From Ostreococcus lucimarinus (taxonomy: Eukaryota): DNA of 64,000 nucleotides. Each line of letters opens with the position of its first letter. Within the stretch, counting starts at the first letter, position 1. Shown in pieces: positions 4,125-38,998 of this stretch. The DNA is taken from assembly GCA_000092065.1 (NCBI GenBank), contig CP000583.1, one strand, 5' to 3'. The notes beneath the pieces are model-generated. The model had not been told where the DNA came from and made no database searches. It saw nothing but the letters and a program-made list of their open reading frames with translations. Made by a program: the position numbers and the translations under genes.

Positions 4125-5143
4125 TTACAATACGACGGCGGCGGCGGCGCGGTCAAAGTCTCGCTCCAAAGACGCGATTTTCGTCAAAGCTTCGTTCGCC
4201 ACTCCGGCCTGCTTCATGGCGTTCACGAACCTGGCCGAGGACTTGCCGAGGTGCAGCGCGCACGCGGCTAAATTCGCGAGCGTCTCGCCATCCTTCGGAT
4301 CGATGGCCACGGCTTCTAGTAAATCACGCTCGGCGTCTTCGTAACTATTCATCATCATCGAACACACCGCTGAACCATTATACAGCTTCGGCGTCCACTT
4401 GTACTTATCGCCGAGCTCTTGGTAAATGTACGAGGCGTCTTGAATCTTCTTCCCGCCGCTCGCGCAGTTCGCCCACGCGCACGCGAGCTGCGCGATGGTC
4501 GAATCGTCATCGATCTGTTGCATCATCTTCGCTTGCTTTTCCGCCAACTCCGCGCGATCCATCTTACACAGCAAGTTCACCATCATCGCGTTCAACTCCA
4601 GCGACGATCCTCCGTGACACAGCCTCATCGCCTCGACGTAATTCCCCTCTCGCGCGAGCAGCGTCGCCCCGACGAGTCGCGTCGTCGCGTCCCCAGACGC
4701 GTGTTCGTCCGCCAGCATCTCACCGATCGCCTCCATCGCGCTCTGTCTCGCCTTTTCGTCCTCGTTCGTCTCGTACAGCGCCAGCAATTTCACCGCTCGC
4801 AGCGCCGCCGGCGCGTCCTCCGCCGTCTCGCGCGCGACGATCTGTTCGTTCACCCATCGGGCGCCGTCTCGTCAGTCCTTCGTCGTCCCGGGCGCTCGCG
4901 CGCGCGATCGGCGCTCGATCGGCGCGTTCGTTTCTCCGTCCGGTCCCTTCGCGGCGTTTCGCGCGCGTCGCGTCGTCGTCGCACCTCGCCCTCGCCCATG
5001 GCGACGCGCGATCGCGCGACGAACGCGTCGCGCCTGACGGCGTCGACGCCGTCCGCGTCCGCGCACGCCCTCGCGGCGTCGACGCACTCGGCGTAGGCGC
5101 CGATGTGGAAGTAGTTCTCGCAGTGAAACAGCGCCTCGGACAT
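4125..5143 (-). CDS. COPE: coatomer subunit epsilon (epsilon-COP), 2 exons: about 5143..4985 and 4840..4125; GC-rich 144-nt intron 4984..4841
   Basis: Exon 1 'MSEALFHCENYFHIGAYAECVDAARA' matches the epsilon-COP N-terminus (human '[22 protein letters not shown]'). Exon 2 matches through the C-terminus ('IQDASYIYQELGDKY...NGSAVCSM', 'ETLANLAACALHLGK...', 'ERDFDR'). Donor GTGCGA, acceptor ACAG, phase 0. Confidence 0.8.
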
Positions 5144-6175: not shown

Positions 6176-6757
6176 ATCGTAGGCTTAGCAAACTTAGCTC
6201 ACGCGTTGAAATCGACGACGCGCATTGCGTTGAAAGTCGTTCGCGCCGATCGCCAGCCCCGAACCGCCGCGATGACTCAGCCTCGCGCCGCGGAGCGCGA
6301 GACCCCCGACGGGCGACTGCATATCGCGACGCGAGCGAGCGTCGAGCGTGGACAGAAGACGGACGTAACCGTCGCGCTCGCACTTCTTTCGCGTCGACGC
6401 GAGGAGCGAGTTCACGCGCTCGATCGAAAATGTTCGCCGTAACGAACGGCGCCTCCGCGCGCGTCGCCCTCGGCGCTCGGACCAATCGCGCGGTCGAACG
6501 CCGCGTGAGAGCGGTCGCCGCGCCCGCGCGATGCGGCGCGATTGAAAACACAGCTTCGTTCACTTGTGCGCGCCGCCGTGAGGTGCGTGAAGCGCTCGAG
6601 CGATGGAAACGAAGGCGAAACGCGATCGCTGGACGTTGGGGATCGTTTGAAAACTCTGTCGACGAGGGAGGGGCGAGAGCGACGCGTGTCGGCGGTGGGG
6701 AGGACCGAGAGATGTACTGACGCGTAGAGATGATTTTTTGCAACGATACAGGAAGTC

Positions 6758-7858
6758 GTGCGATCGCGAAGATGCGTCGTGGAGGCGAGACCGGCGGCCC
6801 GCGGGAGCGTCGTGGCGAAGGCGTCGTTGTCCGACATGGACGTGAAGACGAAGACGGCGGTGTACTTTTTTCTTTGGTACTTCTTCAACATCGTGTTCAA
6901 CGTGTATAACAAGTCGACGTTGAACGTGTTTCCGTACCCGTGGCTGATCTCGACCTTGCAACTCGCGGCGACGAGTCTTTGGATGTTAACCGTGTGGGCG
7001 ACAAAGGTGCAACCGAAGCCAGTCGTGTCGAAAGTGTTCCTTTTGGCCGTCGCTCCGGTGGCTTTGTTCCACACCATCGGGCACGTTTCTGCTTGTGTGA
7101 GTTTCAGTAAGATGGCGGTATCTTTTACGCACGTCATCAAGGCTGCTGAGCCGGTTTTCTCCGTCATACTCTCTGGCCCGCTCCTCGGCCAAACGTTCGC
7201 CCCGGCGGTGTGGTACTCTTTGATCCCCATCGTCGCCGGTTGCTCGATGGCAGCCATGAAAGAGGTTAGTTTCAATATTGTTGGCTTTCAAGGCGCCATG
7301 ATCAGCAATCTCGCGATGGTTTTGCGTAACATCACGTCAAAGAAATCGTTGAACGATTTCAAGCACATCGACGGCATCAACTTGTACGGCATTCTGGGCA
7401 TCATCGGTCTCTTCTATCTCGCTCCCGCGGCGTATGTGATGGAAGGTGCTCAGTGGTCTGCTGGGTACGCCGCCGCCGTTGCCAAGGTTGGCGAGCAAAA
7501 GCTTTGGCAAATGCTCTTCTTGTCTGGCATCTTCTATCACTTGTACAACCAAGTGAGTTACCAAGCTCTCACGAACATCACCCCCGTGACTTTCAGTGTA
7601 GGCAATGCCCTCAAGCGCGTGGCCGTGATCGTTGCTTCTGTTATTTACTTCAGAAATCCGGTCTCACCTTTGAACGCGGCGGGTTCTGCATTGGCCCTGC
7701 TCGGTGCGTACTTGTACACAAAGGCTTCCGAGTCGAAGAAATCCGCAGCGGCCCCCACCGCCATGACGAAGGCAGATCGATCTTACTCTGCCTACAACGA
7801 GCAATTCATCCAGACGACTGGTTTAACTGGTTTGACGCTCGAAGAATTCGATGTGTAA
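6758..7858 (+). CDS. plastidic phosphate translocator, TPT/PPT family (triose-phosphate/phosphate translocator-like, DMT superfamily)
   Basis: 'KTAVYFFLWYFFNIVFNVYNKSTLNVFPYPWLISTLQLAA', about 8 TM segments, 'NTLKRVAVIVASVIYF'. N-terminal extension before M27 (6836). TGTAA overlaps the stop codon. Confidence 0.85.
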   Translation: MRSRRCVVEARPAARGSVVAKASLSDMDVKTKTAVYFFLWYFFNIVFNVYNKSTLNVFPYPWLISTLQLAATSLWMLTVWATKVQPKPVVSKVFLLAVAPVALFHTIGHVSACVSFSKMAVSFTHVIKAAEPVFSVILSGPLLGQTFAPAVWYSLIPIVAGCSMAAMKEVSFNIVGFQGAMISNLAMVLRNITSKKSLNDFKHIDGINLYGILGIIGLFYLAPAAYVMEGAQWSAGYAAAVAKVGEQKLWQMLFLSGIFYHLYNQVSYQALTNITPVTFSVGNALKRVAVIVASVIYFRNPVSPLNAAGSALALLGAYLYTKASESKKSAAAPTAMTKADRSYSAYNEQFIQTTGLTGLTLEEFDV

Positions 7859-12236: not shown

Positions 12237-12521
12237 CGACGCGCGCGCGAACGCTCCCGCGCGATCCTCTCACGAAAACCGCGTCGCGTCGAAGCGCGAT
12301 CGTTTTTGACGCGCAAGATGACGACGGCGCGGAAAAGCGTATCGCGCTTTTCGCGCGCCTCCAGATTCGCGCGGGAAAAACCGTCGGTCGGTCTGTCCGA
12401 TTGTCCGATCGATCCCACATCGCGATTCCGCGCGTAAAACACTCGTGGAATTCGCGATTCGCGCGTTTTCGCTCGAAAATTCGCGCCGCGCGTCGACGCG
12501 CGACGTCCGCGGCGCGACGCG

Positions 12522-12595
12522 GTCGATCGATCGATCGATCGATCGGTCGATCGATCGATCGGTCGGTCGATCGGTCGGTCGGTCGAACGCATTTT
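12522..12595. repeat. (GATC/GGTC)n microsatellite in the 5' region between divergent genes
   Basis: 'ggtcgatcgatcgatcgatcggtcgatcgatcgatcggtcggtcgatcggtcggtcggtcg'. Confidence 0.9.
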
Positions 12596-19632: not shown

Positions 19633-20783
19633 ATGGCGATGTCGGCGAACCCGTTCATGGCGCTCGACGAAGACGCCCCGCGCGCGCCCGCGCCGAGCGC
19701 GAAAGCGGCGAGCGCGCCCGCGAGTAAGCCGGCGACGAAAGGTGCGCGCGCCGCGCGCGACGCGAGCGCCGGGGTGGGGCGGAGACGATCGCACGGCGGC
19801 GAATGGGAATTTAACCGAGCGTTCACGCGGTCGGGACGACGATGCGCGCGCGCGAACCCGCGGACGCGCGCGACGCGACGGGAAAAGCAATGCGCGGATG
19901 AGGGTAAACCCCAATCGAGGGCTGACGATGACTGACGCTTTGATTTTTTATCTCTCACGCAGTCGCTGCGCCCGCGCGAAGCAACGGTGGCAGCAAAGCT
20001 AAGCCTGCGAAGGCGACTCGTGAATTCGAGGGCGAAGTTATCGGTGCCGAAGGCAGCAAGGGGTTCCACGCCAAGGGCGGACGAGGCGATCATAAAGGTC
20101 ACTCCCGCTCGGCTCGTCGCGGCGGACGCGGCGAAGGCGGCGAAGGCCGCCAACGCTCTCGACGCGACTTTGATCGTCGTGACGCCTCGGGTCGAGGCCA
20201 CGATGGCCACCGTGGCGGTGCCGGTAAGGGCAACTGGGGCAAAGCCGGCGACGAACTCGCCGAGCTCGGCGCCAACACCGTCGATGAAAGCGAAACCGAA
20301 CCTGAGGTCGTGGATAACTCCAGCGAGCTCACGTTCGCGCAAGCCGAAGCGCTCAAGGCCGAAAAGCGAGCGGCCCTGGCCGCTCAATGGAAGAGGCCTG
20401 AAGCTAAGGTACTCGATGGCTCTGCTCTCGAAGGCCTCAAGCTCATGTCTGGCGACGCCGACGACGCCGACTTGGACTTTGGCGGCGTCGGCGTGAAGAG
20501 CAAGCGTGACCGCACGAAGAACACCACTTCCAAGCAAAAGGTTGACGTTGGCTTCCGCATTGCTTCGACGCAACCGGCGGATGACCGTGATGACCGCGAC
20601 GACCGTCGCGGCGGTCGCGGCGGTCGCGGCGGTCGCGACTCTGGCCGTGGCGGTCGCGGTGGCCGCGACTCCGGCCGAGGTGGCCGTGGAGAAAGCTCTC
20701 GCGGTGGCCGTGGCGGTGGTGGACGTGGAGCCAACATCAAAATTGAAGACACCTCCGCCTTCCCGACGCTCGGTGGCAAGTAA
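19633..20783 (+). CDS. Stm1/SERBP1/HABP4-family mRNA- and ribosome-binding protein, 2 exons (19633..19741, 19963..20783; 221-nt GC-rich intron, phase 1)
   Basis: Exon 1 'MAMSANPFMALDEDAP' = Stm1_N motif. Exon 2 has RGG repeats and C-terminal 'FPTLGGK'. Donor GTGCGC, acceptor 'ctctcacgcag', branch point 'ctgac'. Confidence 0.75.
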
Positions 20784-23571: not shown

Positions 23572-24438
23572 CTATTCCTGGTTCGGGGGCGCTTGTAAGC
23601 TCTTGGCGTTGAACGTAGCTTCGCGTTTGGCTCTCTCGACCCAGTTCATGGCCGCGATCGAGCCCTCTCGCGATTCCAATAATTTCTTGAGTTGGTCGTA
23701 CAGAGGTCTTTCGTCGAACTCTCCGAGAGCCTCGGCGACAATTTTGTTGTTCTCATTCGGCGCTAACGCAAACACTTGCCACTTGTTCGGGTATACTTTT
23801 AACGTACGCACGATCTCTCCTTGAATGCGCTGCTCCTTCAAGTAATACGTCTGCTCAAACTTCCCCACAAACTCTTCTGCCCGTCGCTTCCACGGCCCAA
23901 AGCCGAAGTCGCCAATGATGGCGCCCTTGGTGTTCCATTGCGGGTTAGCGATGATCTTTAGACGGAAATCGTTTTTGTTTTCGATCGCCCGCAAATCATC
24001 CAAGACCTCGGCCGTCGGAAACGAGACAACGACGTCGGAACCAAGCGTCAGAGCCGCCACTGCATCGGCGTCGTCGATGACGCGTTGTTGGCACGTCCCC
24101 TCGGCGCCGGCGTTGATTAGTCGCAGCACCTCGCTCACCATGGGCGCTAGAGCGCCGTATTGTTGACGGATCCCGCCCGGCCAATCATCAAGATCGGTAG
24201 CACCGATCAAAGGAAGGTTCAACTCGATCGCTTGCGTCGTTTTTCCGTCCCTCAACGCCGCTTCGATCGCCCCAGCGGCTTGCTCTATCTGCTCCTTCGT
24301 GTTCAACGGAAGCGATGGGAGGGCGCTGACGACGGTTCGCGCGGCTCGCGCGGCTCGCGTGCGCGTTTTATTCATCGAGCGTCGCGCGAGCGACGGCGAC
24401 ACGCGCGCATTGGTCGAACACGATGACGACGACAGCAT
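23572..24438 (-). CDS. hypothetical protein with Ser/Arg-rich presequence (probably organelle-targeted); tentatively DUF1995-like
   Basis: 'MLSSSSCSTNARVSPSLARRSMNKTRTRAARAAR' transit-like, 'ELNLPLIGATDLDDWPGG', 'IIANPQW', 'GFGPW'. The family assignment is a recollection, not verified. Confidence 0.35.
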   Translation of the reverse strand: MLSSSSCSTNARVSPSLARRSMNKTRTRAARAARTVVSALPSLPLNTKEQIEQAAGAIEAALRDGKTTQAIELNLPLIGATDLDDWPGGIRQQYGALAPMVSEVLRLINAGAEGTCQQRVIDDADAVAALTLGSDVVVSFPTAEVLDDLRAIENKNDFRLKIIANPQWNTKGAIIGDFGFGPWKRRAEEFVGKFEQTYYLKEQRIQGEIVRTLKVYPNKWQVFALAPNENNKIVAEALGEFDERPLYDQLKKLLESREGSIAAMNWVERAKREATFNAKSLQAPPNQE

Positions 24439-24562: not shown

Positions 24563-25600
24563 ATGGCAGCCCCGGATGGTGCGCGCGAGTTTTACACCGG
24601 GAAGAACGTGTGCGCGCCCATGGTGCGCATCAGCACCCTGGCGACGAGGCTCTTGGCGCACGAATACGGCGCAGACTTGGTGTACGGGGAGGAACTCGTG
24701 GACAAGCGTTTCATGCACTGCAGGCGGATATTAAATAAAGAGCTCGGAAGCGTTGATTTTATCGACGCCAAGGGCACGCTGACATTCCGCACGGTGCCAG
24801 AGGAGCGCGAGCGCGTGGTGTTTCAGGTTGGAACTTCTTCGGCGGCTTCGGCTCTGAAGAGCGCGGAACTCGTCGCCAGGGACGTAGCGGCGATTGACGT
24901 TAATATGGGGTGTCCCAAGCATTTCAGCACGTCCGGTGGGATGGGTGCGAGACTGTTGAGCCAGCCTGAATTGGTAAGAGACATATTGACCACGTTGAGG
25001 AGGAATCTGCCATCGACGACACACGTGACTTGCAAGATACGGCTGCTTGAGAGCGAGAGAGAGACAGCAGAGTTGGCGAAAATGATAGAATCTTGCGGAG
25101 TCTCTGCATTCGCAGTGCACGGCCGTTATATTCCACAGCGTCCACGCGAGCCAGCGCACTGGAATCTTATAAAGAACGTCGTTGAAGCGGTCGACTGTCC
25201 CGTCATTGCAAATGGCGATGTGGAATGTTACGAAGATTTTGCGAGAATTAGAGCCCAAACAGGCGCGGCTAGTGCCATGTGCGCAAGGGGAGCACAGTGG
25301 AACCTTTCGATATTTCGTCCAGAAGGCATGCTACCGATTGATGTGGTAAAAAAGCACTTTGTTCAAAGAGCAATCGAGTATGACAATCCGTGGAACTTTA
25401 CAAAGTTTCAGTTGCGAGAGATTTTAGTTCACAACAAGCGCATGGCTTCTGATGAGGGACAATGTCTCAATAAGTGCAAAACATGGGATGAACTCGCGGA
25501 GCTTTACTCGTTAGAAGACGTGCTGAAGGAGAGCCGAGAGAAGCGTCGGCGAGCCGCACTTCGAGACGACGACGAATACACTGACACCGTTCATCCATAG
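24563..25600 (+). CDS. DUS2: tRNA-dihydrouridine synthase, DUS2-like (no dsRBD)
   Basis: 'CAPMVRISTLATRLLAHEYGADLVYGEELVDKR', 'VVFQVGTS', 'IDVNMGCPKHFSTSGGMGARLL', 'VTCKIRLL', 'FAVHGR', 'VIANGDV'. Confidence 0.9.
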   Translation: MAAPDGAREFYTGKNVCAPMVRISTLATRLLAHEYGADLVYGEELVDKRFMHCRRILNKELGSVDFIDAKGTLTFRTVPEERERVVFQVGTSSAASALKSAELVARDVAAIDVNMGCPKHFSTSGGMGARLLSQPELVRDILTTLRRNLPSTTHVTCKIRLLESERETAELAKMIESCGVSAFAVHGRYIPQRPREPAHWNLIKNVVEAVDCPVIANGDVECYEDFARIRAQTGAASAMCARGAQWNLSIFRPEGMLPIDVVKKHFVQRAIEYDNPWNFTKFQLREILVHNKRMASDEGQCLNKCKTWDELAELYSLEDVLKESREKRRRAALRDDDEYTDTVHP

Positions 25601-25653
25601 ACGTAGCTCTTAGCGTAATTCATTTCTATAGATATCTACTACATTTCATCCAT

Positions 25654-28602
25654 CTACCTCAAATACTGCGCAACACGATGTGCACGCTCGAATATAGGAT
25701 CCAAGAATGCATTGCTTGAGCGGTGGATTTCGCTTATGAAGTGTTGCATGGCGGCCTCATCATCGAGCTCTAACGCGAACTTTGACTCAAATCTAAGCAA
25801 AGCTTTTTCGTAGTCTTGATTTATGTTGATGTCAGGGATATTCGCGTCTGCCATCAGGCTGAAAAGATTCAACAGCAACACCACCGACTCACTCTTTCGT
25901 AAGATGTTGTATGCTTCGCAACAGTAAGTCTTAAACTCACTGAAGTACTCGCCCATCGCTTCGACCATCTCTTTGCAGAGCTTCATCGATGGGGGAGAAA
26001 TCTTTGGATCACGTCCCATGATGAATCCAAAGTCAATGTGAAACAACCTTCCATCTGAGGCCAGCATCAAGTTGTCCAAGTGTCGGTCCCCCACGCCCAG
26101 CAGATACGTAATCACCGAGTACCCAGCACAACTCTTGACGAAGTTCATCATCGATGTCATCGTACATCCGTTCGGGCCGTGCGGGTCGGGATTGTGTAAA
26201 GCTATGTATGTCGTCAGCTTCTCGTGTTCCTTGAGGATGTCAGCAAGCCCTTGGGACTTGACAAACTCAATGAGTCCTGTATCATTTCCAGTGGCGAGTA
26301 CACGGTACGAAGTCAATTTCAAATCAAGATTTTCTCGCTTCAAAAGCTTGTCCATCAATGAAATCATCTGCACGCAGAGTTGATCTTGCCGTAAGTCATC
26401 GCCCTTCTTGAAGATCATCGTTGCGCTGTCCCCGGTGCTGTTGGCGAAATATAATTAATAAAAAAAATAAAGTCGAATGTGAAATAATTACTCACAGCGT
26501 CTGGAACGCGAGCTTCAATGGGCTCAGCGCAGATTTGAAAACATTACTTTCACTGAAACATGAATGATTTAACCACTCGTCGAAAACGTGCAGAAATTGA
26601 GATTTACCTCGCAAGTATGCCAGTCGTCAATACCTGAGCGAAAATTAAATAATTAGACCGTGAGAAGACAAACGAAAGCTCGCAATTCTGAACGTACCGT
26701 CGGATTCAACGGGTTGGGAATGGCCTGAGGGAACGATGTTAACACAGCACCAAGCGTATTGTCACTAGAGAGAATGGCCTGCGAAGTTAATCGCGTCAGC
26801 TCCCGAATATTTAATTAATTCAGAAATAATAATTGAACGTACCCTCAGACGCTCGACTTTACGCGCCCCACGAAGCGTGTTAACTTCTTGAGTAATGATC
26901 TACCCACGTAACGTCAGAAACGAATTAATTCGACGTAATTGATCGAAAACCGTACCGTAATCTTTTCCATCAGTTCCCGCTGGAATTTCAGTGTCTCCCA
27001 AACACTACGTCCTCGTGTATCCTTCGCCCTACTAGCTCGCTCGAACATGCGGAATGCGCTCATGCTACGTTCCGCTGCTAATCCCTCCCATCCAACTTGC
27101 AAGTACCTGCGACAAAACGCGTCAGAACCAATCTTGATACATTTAATTTAATTTAATTAATTCCACGAGGTGGAGTTCTTTGCACTAATACGTACCAGTA
27201 CAAATAGTTCCCGACGACTTCGTTCGCGACTGCGCGTTCGACTAAAAATTTCGCGAGTTCGTTGTCGTCGGCTGTTTCGTAGCGTAACGCCTGTTTGCAT
27301 TTGCGAAGAAAATTTGTTAGTGAACCCATTTAATTTAACACATCGAGCACAGAGCGCACTGAGACATAGAGTATCGACAACATGTGCGCAAACGATCCAT
27401 ACCTGAACTAACTGCAGCAAATATAGCAATAGATCTTCATTCTCAGCTTGTCTCAGGATGGAAACCGCGTAACGACGTACTTCGCTGTTCGAGAAGGTTG
27501 GTGTCAGAAGTTCCAACGCTGCGGCTGGGCCGATGGGCGCCCACTCGCGCATCAGTTGCACTGAGGCCTGCGTTTCAGCCGGATCTGACCAGTCGACACA
27601 CTTAAGGAACTTTGTTAACGCCCTTGGATCGTGACTTATGGCGAATCTAAACTTCCACAGCAAATTTTGCGATTCCATGTCCAGCGGTCGCGTGGGTGGG
27701 AGTTGGATAATTGCCGACAGCCTGCGCTTCTCGGCTCCATCTGGCTTCAACTCCATATCAATAACGCCACGACCGACACTACGCGAAAGCTTTTGATGCT
27801 TACGCTCAGCCGGGTTTTCTAACATCAAATTAACCTCGTCGTCGACGAGCCAAGTCAAGCGCTGCCAACTGTGAATCTCCAGCGGCTCCACGTCTTCTCG
27901 ACGCTCGCGAAAAATCACTGGGCGCACGTACACGGGCAGCTCTACCAAGAGTTGGAAGAAGTCATCAGTCGCCTGGGCTATACGCAACTGCATACTTCGA
28001 GCATCTCGTATGCGAGAAAACACCAAATTATCCAACCAGTTCACCGAAGGCAAAGTTCCTTGCTCATACTGCACCAAGAAACTCTCGAGCTGCTGGAGCT
28101 CCGCCTGTTGCTCCATGAACTTGGCGCCAAGTTGATCGTACTCTTTCTTCGACTCACGAGCCGTCGAGAGCGCTAAACAACGCAAACCTTGTAATAATCG
28201 ATCATCGTCCCCAAAAATATCCACTCGAGAGTATCCCAACACGGTGTTCGGCAACTTTCTCGCCGAAAGTATTCTAAATTCGAGAGACGTCTCACGAGGA
28301 AGATCTCTCACTTTGATGGGAAATCTCAGCTTTTCCTTCCACTCAGCCATTCCATCGGCGTGAACAACCATCGTTGTAGAAACTTCATTCGTAAGAGGTT
28401 CCTCGTTCGACAGCAAACGAGCGCTCACAAGAATTTCACTCTCCACGGTTCCCACTCGCGAGCGAGGCAGTTTGCCGTACAGCGCCTTGACGTGCACGTT
28501 GAAGTCTAACGAGACATCTCTGCTTGAAAAGACCTTCAAGTTCTCATCTTGAACCACGTCGGTCATCTCGAACGACCTTTTCGCCCCCCAATCGGTTCGC
28601 AC
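25654..28602 (-). CDS. VPS34: phosphatidylinositol 3-kinase catalytic subunit type 3 (VPS34), 8 exons with approximate coordinates 28602..27403, 27290..27196, 27106..26956, 26899..26843, 26778..26698, 26633..26608, 26552..26496, 26437..25654
   Basis: Exon 1 = C2 + helical domain ('VRRYAVSILRQAENEDLLLYLLQLVQ'). Middle exons = 'ALRYETADDNELAKFLVERAVANEVVGNYLYW', 'VFKSALSPLKLAFQT'. Last exon = kinase core 'IFKKGDDLRQDQLCVQMISLMDKLLKRENLDLKLTSYRVLAT', 'LGVGDRHLDNLML...GRLFHIDFGFIMGRDPK'. Seven AT-rich 55-112-nt introns with GTACG/GTATG/GTGAG/GTAAA donors, CAG/TAG acceptors and CTGAC/CTAAC branch points. Confidence 0.9.
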
Positions 28603-28922: not shown

Positions 28923-29972
28923 ATGCTGGCGTGTAACGCATGCTGGTGTGACCTAGACTCTGGATCGGCGTACATCGCGGCGTGCGATCACGTCTTCTGT
29001 GCGTGCGAAAGACGCGTGTGCTCTCGACCTCGACCGTTTAGGTTGCGGTTTTATTCGAATACTTCCCTCGCTCGAAGCGCGCGCATGGCGCGAGTTCGTA
29101 GAATCTGACGACAGTTGATCGACACAGGTGAAAAGGATGTGCACCTCGGCCTCGAGCAGCGACAGTGCGCGGTGTGTGCGACGAAGATGGAAGAGCGAAC
29201 TATTCGAGTCTCGGAAGTTCAACCCGACCTCGGCGAGCTTCAACGCAAGCTGACTGGCCTCAACCCGAACGACATGCTCACCGCCGTTGCGTACGGATTA
29301 AAATTTTGGGACGATCAACTCGAGCTTCGATACAGAACTGAGCTTGAAAAGTCGTTCACGAGCGCGCAAAGAAGCGCTGAGATGTACAAGAGGAAACTTC
29401 AGGTGTGTCGTCGCCTCTTGAAACGCCACATGCCATGCAAACTAACCTGATCGCACCTCCAGGACGTGCACAACGCTTATAAGAGAGCCAAGACGAAACA
29501 AGATGAACTTGCCGCTCAGTTAAAGGAACGAGAGAATGATATTGAAGAGTTACAGCATCGCTACGAAGAGAAGAGCAGAGAGAAGCGTCGTTTGGAAGAT
29601 TCAGCTGGAAGAGGCAGACCGAGCCTGGGACCACAGTTTCAGGCACGCACGGCACCTATGATGCCAGAGACTGCGGGTCGAATCGATACTCGAGGTCGTA
29701 CCGAACCTGATGGTTGGCTGCAACAACAACGGGTCTCGTCTAGCGAACTCCGCAGTCATCGTAGCTCCGAGCAACTTCACAGGAATTTACCGCAGCGTCG
29801 CACCAGTCTCACGCGCAGTTTCGACAGCGGATTGACACCTCCATCAAATTCACGCGACTCACACGAGCGCACATTTCGAGCTCTTTCTCCGTACACGCGT
29901 CAGGCAGTCGAACCACCTTCTCGGCCCGGACGTGATTCCGTCGGACTGTTCTCGAAACGACGCATATTCTGA
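28923..29972 (+). CDS. HEI10: RING-type E3 ligase HEI10/CCNB1IP1 (meiotic class-I crossover factor), 3 exons: 28923..29015, 29127..29402, 29463..29972
   Basis: Exon 1 'MLACNACWCDLDSGSAYIAACDHVFCACE' versus human 'MLLCNYRKCRIKLSGYAWVTACSHIFCDQH'. Exon 2 'QCAVCATKMEERTIRVSEV...AVAYGLKFWDDQLELRYRTE' (second CxxC of the RING, then coiled coil). Exon 3 coiled coil and Ser-rich tail ending 'LFSKRRIF' (human '...FKVKRI'). Introns 111 and 60 nt with GTGTG donors. Confidence 0.75.
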
Positions 29973-30129: not shown

Positions 30130-30843
30130 TTATCGCCCGATGATACTCTGCGCCGCCACGTTGAGGCCCGAAAGTAGGGCGCCACCAGCACCATACACCG
30201 CTACAGCGCGAGGACCACTCATACTTTTGTAAAGTGCCCCTGCACCTCCGCCTGCGAATATGGAGCACAGGGAATCGTGCCGATTTTCCAAGTACGCCAT
30301 CGAGGCGCTTTCGAGAGCGGCGTAATACAAGCCGAGGCAACCCAAGGTGTTCCCCATCGATCGTCCTCTTTGACTTACGGCGTTGAGCATTCTATTCAAT
30401 CGCAACTTGGACGTGTCCAAAGCCGGTTCCGGTGCGGCTTTCATGCTCCCGTATAACCCCCACCCTCCGCCGGCGATGCTTCCACCGAGGTATCCAACCC
30501 CGGTCAGGTACGTCAGGTTTTCACTCCAGCTTCGCGTCTTCACCGTGCGCTCTTCATCGAATAAGAACTCAGGTGTATCCGATAACGCATAAATCGCCTT
30601 ATTCATCGACGGATCGAAAGGCCCACCCAATCCGCTATACGGATTGTACGCCCCGCTCGCCCCGCTCGGCAGCGCCAGGCTCTCCGCCGGCGCCCCGAAG
30701 TTTGGCTGCTCTATGTTCTCGTTCAGCGCGCTCGTCGTCACCGCGCCTCCGTTGGGTTCATCCAACGTCTTTGCCCCGCTCGATGACGCTTCGTTCTTGT
30801 TCTTTTCACCCCTTCGCACGCTCAACAAGTCTCGAAGACCCAT
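30130..30843 (-). CDS. TIM23: mitochondrial inner-membrane translocase subunit TIM23 (Tim17/22/23 family)
   Basis: 'NLTYLTGVGYLGGSIAGGGWGLY', 'GNTLGCLGLYYAALES', Gly-zipper TM segments. Soluble N-terminal domain. Confidence 0.75.
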   Translation of the reverse strand: MGLRDLLSVRRGEKNKNEASSSGAKTLDEPNGGAVTTSALNENIEQPNFGAPAESLALPSGASGAYNPYSGLGGPFDPSMNKAIYALSDTPEFLFDEERTVKTRSWSENLTYLTGVGYLGGSIAGGGWGLYGSMKAAPEPALDTSKLRLNRMLNAVSQRGRSMGNTLGCLGLYYAALESASMAYLENRHDSLCSIFAGGGAGALYKSMSGPRAVAVYGAGGALLSGLNVAAQSIIGR

Positions 30844-31361
30844 GATTCCACGCCAGACTCGCGATCGGCGCCGACGCGCGTCCGTCCTTTAATCGGTTTC
30901 CGTCGCGCGCGTCGGTCGCGTCGCGCGCGTCGGTCGCCGTTCGTCGCGTCGCGCGCGCGTTCGAGTCGCGCCTCGTCGCGTCGCGCGCGCGTTCGAGTCG
31001 CGCCTCGTCGCGGCTCGGCGCGCGTCGTCTTCAGACGACGAAAGATGTCGACGATGATTTTCCGCGCCCACCGCGAGGGTCTGGCGCTCGCGCGGGTTCG
31101 GTCCGCCCGGGCGCGACCTTTTCGGGACGGCGGCCCGCGTCGACTTTTACCGCGCGCAGAGGGCGACGCGGCGACGCGACCGCGACCGCGCGTCGACCGA
31201 GGGACGCCCGACCGCGGTCGGCGATGCGCGCGGTGGCGCCCGCGCCGAACGCGCGCGCGCGACGCGAGGCGACGACGCGGCGCGCGGGCGGTCGCCGCGC
31301 GCGATGGGGCGACGAGCGACGACCGCGCGCGAGTGCCGCGAGCGCGCGAACGGCGTGGACG

Positions 31362-38125: not shown

Positions 38126-38998
38126 TCATTTCTTTTGCACCTTCTCTTCCACAAACTCGTCGATCAAGTATGGCCATGCGTCGTTGGAATCATAAGTGTC
38201 CAAATTCTCGCCCACTTGTCGACTAAACTGAAGAACTTGCGACCAGGTGTCGTTCGAGATGGCCTTGCCGTGATTCTTCTCCAGAAAGTCGCACCATTCA
38301 TCCGTAAAGCACCATTTGTCCGCCATCAAAACTTTCCACAAACCGATGGCGGTATCGAGTGACAGCGCCTTCGCGTTTGGTTCCTTAGCGAAGCCAAACG
38401 TAAACTCGTACACATCCTTGAAGGCATTCGGCCTGGTGAGCTCACTTCTCAGTGCATCCATTTTTGCCTTTAATTTAGCCACGGAATCGCACTCCAAATC
38501 CATCATTCCTCGAGTAAACTCCTCCTTTGTGTATTTCCCCATCGTCTCGGCGTCCATCTTCAGTGAAAGCACGAGCGTCACTGGATCGAAAGGATCCACA
38601 CCTAAATCTTTGCAGAGCTGAATGATACCCTCCGCTTCGATTCTCTGCTCTTGCTGGTCGTCTTGGGCTTTGTACACATCGAACATCGCGTCAATACCGG
38701 CCGAGTTAGTGGAAGACCTTTTCGAACTCTTCGAGCGTGCCGAGTAAAAGTACACCTCGAACGCGCTTTCCATGTTCCAAGACGCCTCTTTGAGCGCGTG
38801 AATCGATGCACTCTCATCACTCGTATCCGCGACTTCCATAAATCGTCGCACGATAGCTTTTTGGTTCTTGTTGAGCTTATTCTGTTCGTCAAAGTGCGCG
38901 GTCAGTGATTTAAATTCATCTTTCACGAGTCTTCGTTCGCGCGAGCGCTGCACAGAGTGTGCTTTCAAGGTAACTGGCAATGTGAGAGTGCGTACCAT
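38126..38998 (-). CDS. DCN1: DCN1-like protein (defective in cullin neddylation; UBA-like + PONY domain)
   Basis: 'FKDVYEFTFGFAKEPNAKALSLDTAIGLWKVLM', 'DTWSQVLQFSRQVGENLDTYDSNDAWPYLIDEFVE' closely match the DCUN1D PONY domain. Confidence 0.85.
   Translation of the reverse strand: MVRTLTLPVTLKAHSVQRSRERRLVKDEFKSLTAHFDEQNKLNKNQKAIVRRFMEVADTSDESASIHALKEASWNMESAFEVYFYSARSKSSKRSSTNSAGIDAMFDVYKAQDDQQEQRIEAEGIIQLCKDLGVDPFDPVTLVLSLKMDAETMGKYTKEEFTRGMMDLECDSVAKLKAKMDALRSELTRPNAFKDVYEFTFGFAKEPNAKALSLDTAIGLWKVLMADKWCFTDEWCDFLEKNHGKAISNDTWSQVLQFSRQVGENLDTYDSNDAWPYLIDEFVEEKVQKK

Follow-up and report, generated by a model that had tools for sequence, protein, structure and literature searches.

The window analysed here is a stretch of 64,000 nucleotides (nt) of the Ostreococcus lucimarinus contig CP000583.1 (assembly GCA_000092065.1), and its main subject is the gene for the class III phosphatidylinositol 3-kinase VPS34, whose coding sequence (CDS) is split by seven short AT-rich introns. 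The eight exons join into a spliced CDS of 2415 nt that stays in frame and encodes 804 amino acids (aa). Pfam domains PI3K_C2 (PF00792), PI3Ka (PF00613) and PI3_PI4_kinase (PF00454) follow one another in the predicted protein, and plant and fungal VPS34 / PI3K proteins were its best named matches, so that, judged by domain order and named homologues, the host gene is a class III PI3K / VPS34. The PI3Ka match runs unbroken over junctions 1 and 2, and comparison with an uninterrupted 812-aa Micromonas-type orthologue, with which the protein is collinear, showed all seven junctions to be free of indels. Intron coordinates, lengths and donors proposed in an earlier note, which was made from the sequence alone, were confirmed to the base by this spliced in-frame model (Table 1). 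We consider it likely (probability about 0.8) that the seven interruptions are genuine spliceosomal GT-AG introns of the short, AT-rich, weak-signal kind known as "chromosome 2" or "BOC1" (big outlier chromosome) introns, lying beside canonical Ostreococcus introns.

Table 1 Coordinates of VPS34, its introns and the other features of the window discussed in the text.
Feature	Coordinates	Strand	Details
VPS34 CDS (class III phosphatidylinositol 3-kinase)	25654-28566	minus	ATG 28566-28564, stop 25656-25654
VPS34 exons (n = 8)	28566-27403, 27290-27196, 27106-26956, 26899-26843, 26778-26698, 26633-26608, 26552-26496, 26437-25654	minus	
VPS34 intron 1	27291-27402	minus	112 nt, 41% GC, GTATGG...AACAG, phase 0, CACTAAC 26 nt from 3' splice site
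VPS34 intron 2	27107-27195	minus	89 nt, 36% GC, GTACGT...CGCAG, phase 2, TTCTGACGC branch site, contains AATTAATT
VPS34 intron 3	26900-26955	minus	56 nt, 41% GC, GTACGG...GGTAG, phase 0, TTCTGACGT branch site, contains AATTAATT
VPS34 intron 4	26779-26842	minus	64 nt, 34% GC, GTACGT...CGCAG, phase 0, AGCTGACGC branch site, contains AATTAATT
VPS34 intron 5	26634-26697	minus	64 nt, 39% GC, GTACGT...CTCAG, phase 0, CTAAT branch-like site only
VPS34 intron 6	26553-26607	minus	55 nt, 36% GC, GTAAAT...TTCAG, phase 2, without CTRAY, follows 26-nt micro-exon
VPS34 intron 7	26438-26495	minus	58 nt, 24% GC, GTGAGT...AACAG, phase 2, without CTRAY
Coatomer epsilon intron	4842-4984	minus	143 nt, 71% GC, GTGCGAC...GGACTGACGAG...AACAG; canonical
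TPT-family transporter intron (predicted)	6583-6751	plus	169 nt, 58% GC, GTGCGTG...GTACTGACGCG...TACAG; gene 6430-7858; canonical
Stm1/HABP4-like gene intron	19742-19962	plus	221 nt, 67% GC, GTGCGCG...GACTGACGC...CGCAG; canonical
HEI10-like RING gene intron 1	28999-29127	plus	129 nt, 56% GC, GTGCGTG...ATCTGACGA...CACAG; canonical
HEI10-like RING gene intron 2	29403-29462	plus	60 nt, 55% GC, GTGTGTC...AACTAACCT...TCCAG; canonical
tRNA-Pro(UGG) gene	50670-50451	minus	pieces 50670-50635, 50573-50554, 50466-50451
DUF1995 protein	23575-24438	minus	exact match to O. lucimarinus CCE9901 protein
Dus	24563-25597	plus	exact match to O. lucimarinus CCE9901 protein; XP_001416620
Tim23	30133-30843	minus	exact match to O. 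lucimarinus CCE9901 protein
DCN1	38129-38998	minus	exact match to O. lucimarinus CCE9901 protein; XP_001416911

The seven introns use the donors GTACGT (three times), GTATGG, GTACGG, GTAAAT and GTGAGT, and all seven acceptors are YAG. Their pooled GC content was 36.5% (182/498; range 24-41%, wider than the 30-35% that had been claimed for them), compared with 51.0% (238/467) in the six internal exons (Fisher p = 7e-6). A CTRAC motif lies 14-26 nt from the 3' splice site in four of them; CTAAT takes its place in intron 5, and neither form occurs in introns 6 and 7, so the strong CTGAC/CTAAC branch point that the earlier note attributed to all introns holds for the canonical introns of the window and for 4/7 of those in VPS34. 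All seven are confined to 467 of the 2412 coding nt (simulation p = 3e-4). The exons themselves have 47-52% GC (whole CDS 49.8%), inside the 47-72% of neighbouring open reading frames (ORFs), and the locus lies in conserved synteny, which does not bear out the suggestion that VPS34 is a compositionally distinct gene. The public O. lucimarinus model XP_001416907.1 is reported without the C2 domain, and an exact look-up of the 804-aa spliced protein found no identical entry in the protein collection searched; for these reasons at least one of these small introns is probably mishandled in the deposited model.

Evidence at the RNA level came from the Joint Genome Institute (JGI) contig Ga0256412_1036119 (L054), which aligned with the window in six blocks, with 100% identity in five and 99.9% in the last. 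Introns 2, 3, 4, 6 and 7 are gone from this contig exactly at the predicted VPS34 junctions, leaving exons 2-3, 3-4, 4-5, 6-7 and 7-8 joined. Derivation from a transcript is the sole explanation of these junctions, and therefore five of the seven VPS34 junctions, which the earlier note had wanted checked on RNA, are confirmed at that level. The contig also continues past the VPS34 stop for at least 154 nt and so enters the 3' end of Dus, a gene convergent with VPS34 (compared with window positions 25500-27350). A junction-peptide tblastn for more spliced contigs was discarded, as its gapped alignments gave false positives.

The canonical class is represented in the window by five introns, one each in the genes for coatomer epsilon (COPE), a TPT-family transporter and a Stm1/HABP4-like protein (STM1) and two in a HEI10-like RING gene. 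All five have GTGCG or GTGTG donors, as the earlier note had stated for the introns outside VPS34, and carry, 17-31 nt ahead of the 3' splice site, a CTGAC/CTAAC motif that takes the form ACTGAC in COPE, TPT and STM1. Their GC content of 62.6% is roughly level with that of the flanking exons; single introns range from 55 to 71%, not 60-70% as had been given, with the two HEI10 introns at 55-56%. Splicing yields a 291-aa coatomer epsilon model matched by Pfam Coatomer_E over 2-288 of 290, an in-frame Stm1/HABP4-like model that matches Pfam HABP4_PAI-RBP1, and a HEI10-like protein whose RING finger match (residues 4-43) continues over the intron 1 junction. The TPT-gene intron, with branch TACTGACGC, divides a 51-codon presequence exon from the remainder of the gene and is predicted from splice signals and reading frame, the Pfam TPT match lying wholly within exon 2. 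With this gene and a twice-interrupted tRNA-Pro gene (see below), split genes are more numerous than the four that the earlier note counted. No further split gene was seen in the window, where the others are single ORFs with complete domains according to gene calls on overlapping metagenome contigs and Pfam scans of the remaining ORFs, a result with which the distribution of AATTAA/TTAATT hexamers over the window, an independent marker, is in accord, and no VPS34-type introns were found in about 40 other window genes or in about 10 kb recovered past both window ends. An open scan for GT..AG, low-GC, frame-joining segments returned 795 candidates and was uninformative, and ORF/Pfam continuity and motif distribution were used instead.

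Descriptions of BOC1 or "chromosome 2" introns are said to include those of Derelle 2006 and Palenik 2007. Confirmed O. lucimarinus introns outside chromosome 2 have the donor GTGCGTG, contain ACTGAC in 87% and GACTGACG in 66.5% of cases, tend towards CGCAG and place the branch about 20-35 nt from the AG (Irimia & Roy 2008, PMC2483917). Chromosome 2, which holds 1748 of the 2148 predicted introns, has introns that prefer GTRNGT and show very weak branch signals, a "natural experiment" in which a single spliceosome has to serve both sets (PMC2483917). Throughout the Mamiellales, genes on the big outlier chromosome each carry numerous small, AT-rich introns that lack conserved motifs (Moreau 2012, PMC3491373; Verhelst 2013, PMC3879977), have limits given as 40-65 bp (PMC3491373) or as <75 nt and <43% GC (PMC3879977), and are probably recognised via their drop in GC (PMC3491373, PMC3879977). 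The BOC1 region is further described as intron-dense, transposable-element-rich and non-collinear between species (PMC3491373; 2026 preprint), and its intron enrichment is reported again in the 2026 preprint. Mamiellales in general are strongly intron-reduced (PMC3879977), and the GC content reported for Ostreococcus genomes exceeds 59% (PMC3491373).

Set against these descriptions, the VPS34 introns resemble the BOC1 class in the short length of five of the seven, in being AT-rich (<43% GC) and below their exons in GC, in their number per gene (seven, of which five are excised in L054), in their GT-AG ends and GTRNG-type donors, in the weak or absent branch motifs of some members, in the presence of a canonical class in the same genome and in their transcript support. 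They differ in that VPS34 apparently lies away from the BOC1 block, among collinear genes with few introns, and in that the motif AATTAATT is strongly enriched in them, whereas no conserved motif is described for the BOC1 class. With canonical introns they share GT-AG spliceosomal structure, a broadly similar spacing from branch A to 3' splice site, the same 64 kb, conservation across Ostreococcus lineages and presumably one spliceosome. Unlike canonical introns, with their GACTGACG branch, GTGCGTG donor and CGCAG end, none of the seven has a GTGCG donor or ACTGAC (the nearest forms, 14-26 nt out, are TCTGACG, GCTGACG and ACTAAC), and their GC content is 36.5% against 62.6%; the canonical introns here occur singly or in pairs near GC-rich 5' gene ends, whereas the VPS34 set forms a mid-gene cluster. 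Boundaries between the classes are soft, because the orthologue of HEI10 intron 1 in a relative (L066, 3390-3519, compared with window 28999-29127) has a GTAAGT donor and 42% GC yet keeps a GACTGAC branch. The two classes grade into each other, and intron composition partly tracks regional GC.

That two compositional intron classes coexist in this window, as the earlier note held, is correct, though already published for O. lucimarinus itself, and AT-rich introns, whose being the norm genome-wide it had named as a refutation, are according to the literature the norm for part of the genome, namely chromosome 2. The main observation is mostly a rediscovery of a published feature of this genome, and a few details are new: the probable site outside the outlier block, conservation throughout the genus of introns that both sister groups lack, positions that are for the most part novel, clustering, and the AATTAATT core.

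Conservation was assessed in 75 loci from one scan of JGI metagenome contigs, which fall into two groups. In Group A, VPS34 spans about 483-505 nt over its coding length and has a gene GC of 0.44-0.48; this group includes at least five lineages beyond O. lucimarinus-type contigs, among which Dus identity is 77-84%. ABC1 orthologues found separately are 81-85% identical to the window protein, compared with 49% for the named Bathycoccus prasinos ABC1, and from such identities we read these lineages as other Ostreococcus clades. In Group B (about 25 loci, gene GC 0.54-0.64), VPS34 is a single ORF with an excess of 0-21 nt and stands in a syntenic setting of DUF1995, Dus and DnaJ/thioredoxin genes; one cluster of a neighbouring gene is named Micromonas pusilla, and we read the group as Micromonas-type. 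A further locus, L098 (about 44% GC, 48% identity), has VPS34 as a single 841-aa ORF next to AAA, DUF1995 and Tim17 genes and is read as Bathycoccus-like.

DNA alignment of nine sequences placed all seven introns in identical columns, with their phases kept, and 63/63 begin with GT and end with YAG. Lengths at each position were near constant among these orthologues (intron 3, 52-56 nt; intron 5, 61-64 nt), introns 1 and 2 being similarly long in all, while the intron sequences had largely diverged. The position of intron 1 with its GT..AG is kept in eight diverged orthologues, and the CTAAT of intron 5 is conserved as well. Both HEI10 intron positions are also conserved in the same Ostreococcus lineages, so that the different ages suggested for the two classes find no support at this depth. 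We then compared positions with VPS34 of Ceratodon purpureus and Scenedesmus sp., threaded onto their own genomic loci (16 and 17 introns, respectively), a comparison with other green algae and plants that the earlier note had proposed. Only intron 2 (phase 2, between YLYW and Y) has position and phase in common with Scenedesmus (1/7); intron 1 lies three codons off another Scenedesmus intron, the other five match none of the 17, and none of the seven matches any of the 16 in Ceratodon. Different origins of the two classes, also suggested at the outset, are still plausible, in that the VPS34 set is absent from two sister groups, occupies mostly unshared positions, is clustered and has its own motif.

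That motif, the palindromic AATTAATT, occurred 25 times against 0.5 expected from dinucleotide shuffles in 42 VPS34 introns of six lineages, an enrichment of about 50-fold that is to be read with the relatedness of these lineages, whose counts are not independent. In the same introns AATTAA was found 43 times against 2.7 expected, and 0/500 shuffles reached the count of either motif. The whole window contains three copies of AATTAATT (26813-26820, 26923-26930 and 27155-27162), all within VPS34 introns (4, 3 and 2, respectively), and 13 of its 21 AATTAA/TTAATT hexamers fall inside the 498 nt of these introns. Likewise, VPS34 introns hold 29/29 copies in seven loci of relatives (L059, L049, L064, L069, L071, L051 and L066; about 10 kb each), and Micromonas-type loci amounting to 122 kb contain none. 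The motif has been retained although the intron sequence around it has diverged, and a full-text literature search returned no report of it. This core could act as a cue for splicing, mark the footprint of an insertion or have arisen by slippage in AT-rich DNA. A role of the AATT motif in providing premature stops was also considered and dropped, as it is inseparable from AT-richness; in-frame stops on retention occur in 50/63 introns, and lengths of 3n in 18/63 are not depleted.

As to its chromosomal position, the VPS34 locus is most likely on chromosome 3 and not on the outlier chromosome 2, and it probably lies outside BOC1. The EukProt entry Ostreococcus_lucimarinus_P001554 equals XP_001416911, which sets the first protein of the 7603 at XP_001415358. 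Within each record, accessions run through the plus strand first and the minus strand second, in positional order. Of the plus-strand genes, Dus bears 416620 and Seipin 416623, and HEI10 and the thioredoxin gene come between these two; the minus-strand numbers are 416907 for VPS34, 416908 for Tim23 and 416911 for DCN1. About 287 plus-strand genes are thereby implied on the 982,987-bp record that carries VPS34, and 976-1262 proteins on the records before it. Chromosome 1, with its 1.15 Mb, could not hold so many proteins, whereas three chromosomes would hold more, and the record should therefore be the third. Introns are scarce around VPS34, relatives share the gene order there, as Micromonas does in part, and nothing resembling a transposable-element gene was seen.

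Several observations count against the interpretation of these introns as outlier-type introns gained within Ostreococcus at a site outside the outlier block. Intron 5 is kept in L054, which starts inside an unspliced intron 1, so that transcript support covers the other five introns; the structure of this contig hints that splicing is inefficient or follows an order, and that the 3' untranslated regions of VPS34 and Dus overlap. At 112 and 89 nt, introns 1 and 2 exceed the range of the BOC1 class (40-65 or <75 nt), the other five measuring 55-64 nt, and good CTGAC/CTAAC motifs in 4/7 are unlike a chromosome 2 set that is almost devoid of them. "Ostreococcus lineages" and "Bathycoccus-like" are labels deduced from identity levels, GC and synteny of metagenome contigs, and the choice between gain and double loss is settled by parsimony with two outgroups only. 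The location, moreover, was derived from the order of protein accessions and not from an assembly alignment, and the 55.8% GC of the window, about 4 points under the reported genome value, makes a low-GC, outlier-like context possible. VPS34 could accordingly be an ordinary BOC1 gene in a window that lies inside the low-GC block of chromosome 2, a situation that would agree with the 53-54% GC around the gene when Ostreococcus genomes exceed 59%, with the concentration of 1748/2148 predicted introns on that chromosome (PMC2483917), and with the equally GC-poor orthologous loci (47-52%) of other Ostreococcus-like lineages. We regard it as unlikely, since accession order makes the record the third and not the second, no such introns occur in the roughly 40 other window genes or the 10 kb or so beyond its ends, and the locus is collinear and shows no transposable-element-like genes, whereas BOC1 is intron-dense, rich in such elements and non-collinear.

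Concerning origin, we lean towards a local burst on the Ostreococcus stem, by which the VPS34 set was gained and not inherited from the green-plant ancestor. Genes are known to lose all their introns in some cases, and the seven introns could instead be old, dating from the ancestor of Mamiellales or of green plants, kept in Ostreococcus and lost from both Micromonas and Bathycoccus, for instance when spliced cDNA recombined with the gene. The shared position and phase of intron 2 in Scenedesmus, the near-match of intron 1 and the strong overall intron reduction of Mamiellales (PMC3879977) speak for such an ancestry, which nevertheless seems unlikely to us, as it needs two independent complete losses, leaves five of the seven positions unmatched among the 17 and 16 introns of Scenedesmus and Ceratodon, and does not account for a cluster within 467 nt (p = 3e-4) whose flanking ancestral positions are all empty, a pattern unlike partial cDNA-mediated loss. 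That the gene itself is foreign or relocated, acquired by horizontal transfer or moved out of BOC1 with its introns, would explain the likeness of its introns to those of BOC1 and its place among the GC-poorer genes of the window (CDS 49.8%). We hold this to be very improbable: its exon GC is within the range of its neighbours (RecQ 52%, DnaJ 48%, DCN1 49%, others to 72%), its nearest homologues are those of other Mamiellales, followed by plants and green algae, and the same neighbours (DUF1995, Dus, AAA, Tim17/23) flank the intronless gene in Micromonas-type and Bathycoccus-like loci, which means that the introns arose in a gene that had stayed put.

Such a gain within Ostreococcus would recall the introner elements of Micromonas (IE-A to IE-D), another case of lineage-specific intron gain in Mamiellales. 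Those elements are repeated, similar at family level and GC-rich and avoid low-GC regions, whereas the VPS34 introns are singletons that share only an (AATT)n core. All-versus-all blastn of the seven introns gave nothing beyond (AATT)n matches of 8-13 nt and found no other copies in the window; by this measure the VPS34 introns are not introner-like repeats today. They might still be decayed copies of mobile introner-type elements, with the (AATT)n core as a remnant, given that they form a clustered burst in one lineage, that the AATTAATT / AAATTAAAT core is common to them and enriched some 50-fold, and that introner elements are present in the sister genus (PMC3879977). The lack of extended similarity or of any further window copy, boundary repeats that on direct reading are no longer than the AG/GT consensus, and a motif that is equally explicable as splicing cue or slippage make this improbable in our view.

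The twice-interrupted tRNA-Pro(UGG) gene came to light through a hit of the canonical-intron scan at 50549-50467 (minus strand). ARAGORN called no tRNA at this locus on the genomic window, and the joined 72-nt sequence was called as a perfect tRNA-Pro(tgg). The first insert (61 nt) occupies the canonical anticodon-loop site, and the second (87 nt, 50553-50467) splits the T-loop between TTCG and ATT. The T-loop insert starts with GTGAGTG, has CAACTGACC (ACTGAC) 24 nt from its end and finishes with TAG, and in these letters it looks like one of the canonical spliceosomal introns of Ostreococcus. Uninterrupted tRNA-Pro(UGG) genes occur on two giant-virus contigs, and the joins are supported because the D and anticodon arms of these copies are identical to those of the O. 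lucimarinus gene. For the tRNAs of Ostreococcus, a 2026 review names canonical introns and permuted genes and nothing else, and it reports T-loop introns from red algae only. No orthologous tRNA-Pro was found in 500 nt at the syntenic spot of one relative, and the minimum free energy fold of the precursor (z = -0.3) was uninformative.

Among the neighbours of VPS34, the downstream order in Micromonas-type loci (L011, L018, L023, L024 and others) is DUF1995 and then Dus, the reverse of that in Ostreococcus, and Dus was matched there as two separated pieces, which suggests a Micromonas intron where Ostreococcus has none. Across the window, GC content is 65-73% at 5' ends and promoters and falls to 45-50% in gene bodies and 3' ends, with GC-rich intergenic spikes. 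A small response-regulator gene is preceded by a (CGAT)n / CGACCGAT microsatellite (window 12520-12590), and tandem GTCGCGTCGCGCGCGCGTTCGAGTCGCG-like repeats occupy a divergent promoter region at 30890-31000.

Published proposals together with the anatomy of the VPS34 introns suggest that they would be recognised by intron definition. The cues may be the GTRNG donor, the YAG acceptor, a CTRAY of loose form that, in the introns which have it, lies 14-26 nt upstream of the acceptor, and a GC drop of about 14 points relative to the exons, with the mid-intron (AATT)n motif as a possible additional cue. VPS34 would be an instance of a known intron class outside its described territory, its locus probably lying off the outlier region of chromosome 2.

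How one spliceosome handles two intron populations, and where the AT-rich one comes from, has been open since 2008 (PMC2483917) and is still described as unexplained. VPS34 provides a compact single-gene test bed for these questions, with a probable gain dated by presence in all sampled Ostreococcus-like lineages and absence from both sister groups, conserved positions in diverged sequence and a candidate motif, and confirmation that the locus is outside BOC1 would make the intron type separable from the environment of the outlier chromosome. Tentatively, and with more doubt than confidence, we suggest that short AT-rich introns of the outlier type also occur beyond the outlier chromosome, and that a burst inserted seven of them into a 467-nt stretch of a housekeeping gene on a standard chromosome at the base of Ostreococcus, where all have been kept. 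If this is true, the palindrome AATTAATT in their core would either have been left behind by the mechanism of insertion or be an unrecognised cis-signal that lets one spliceosome process signal-poor AT-rich introns.

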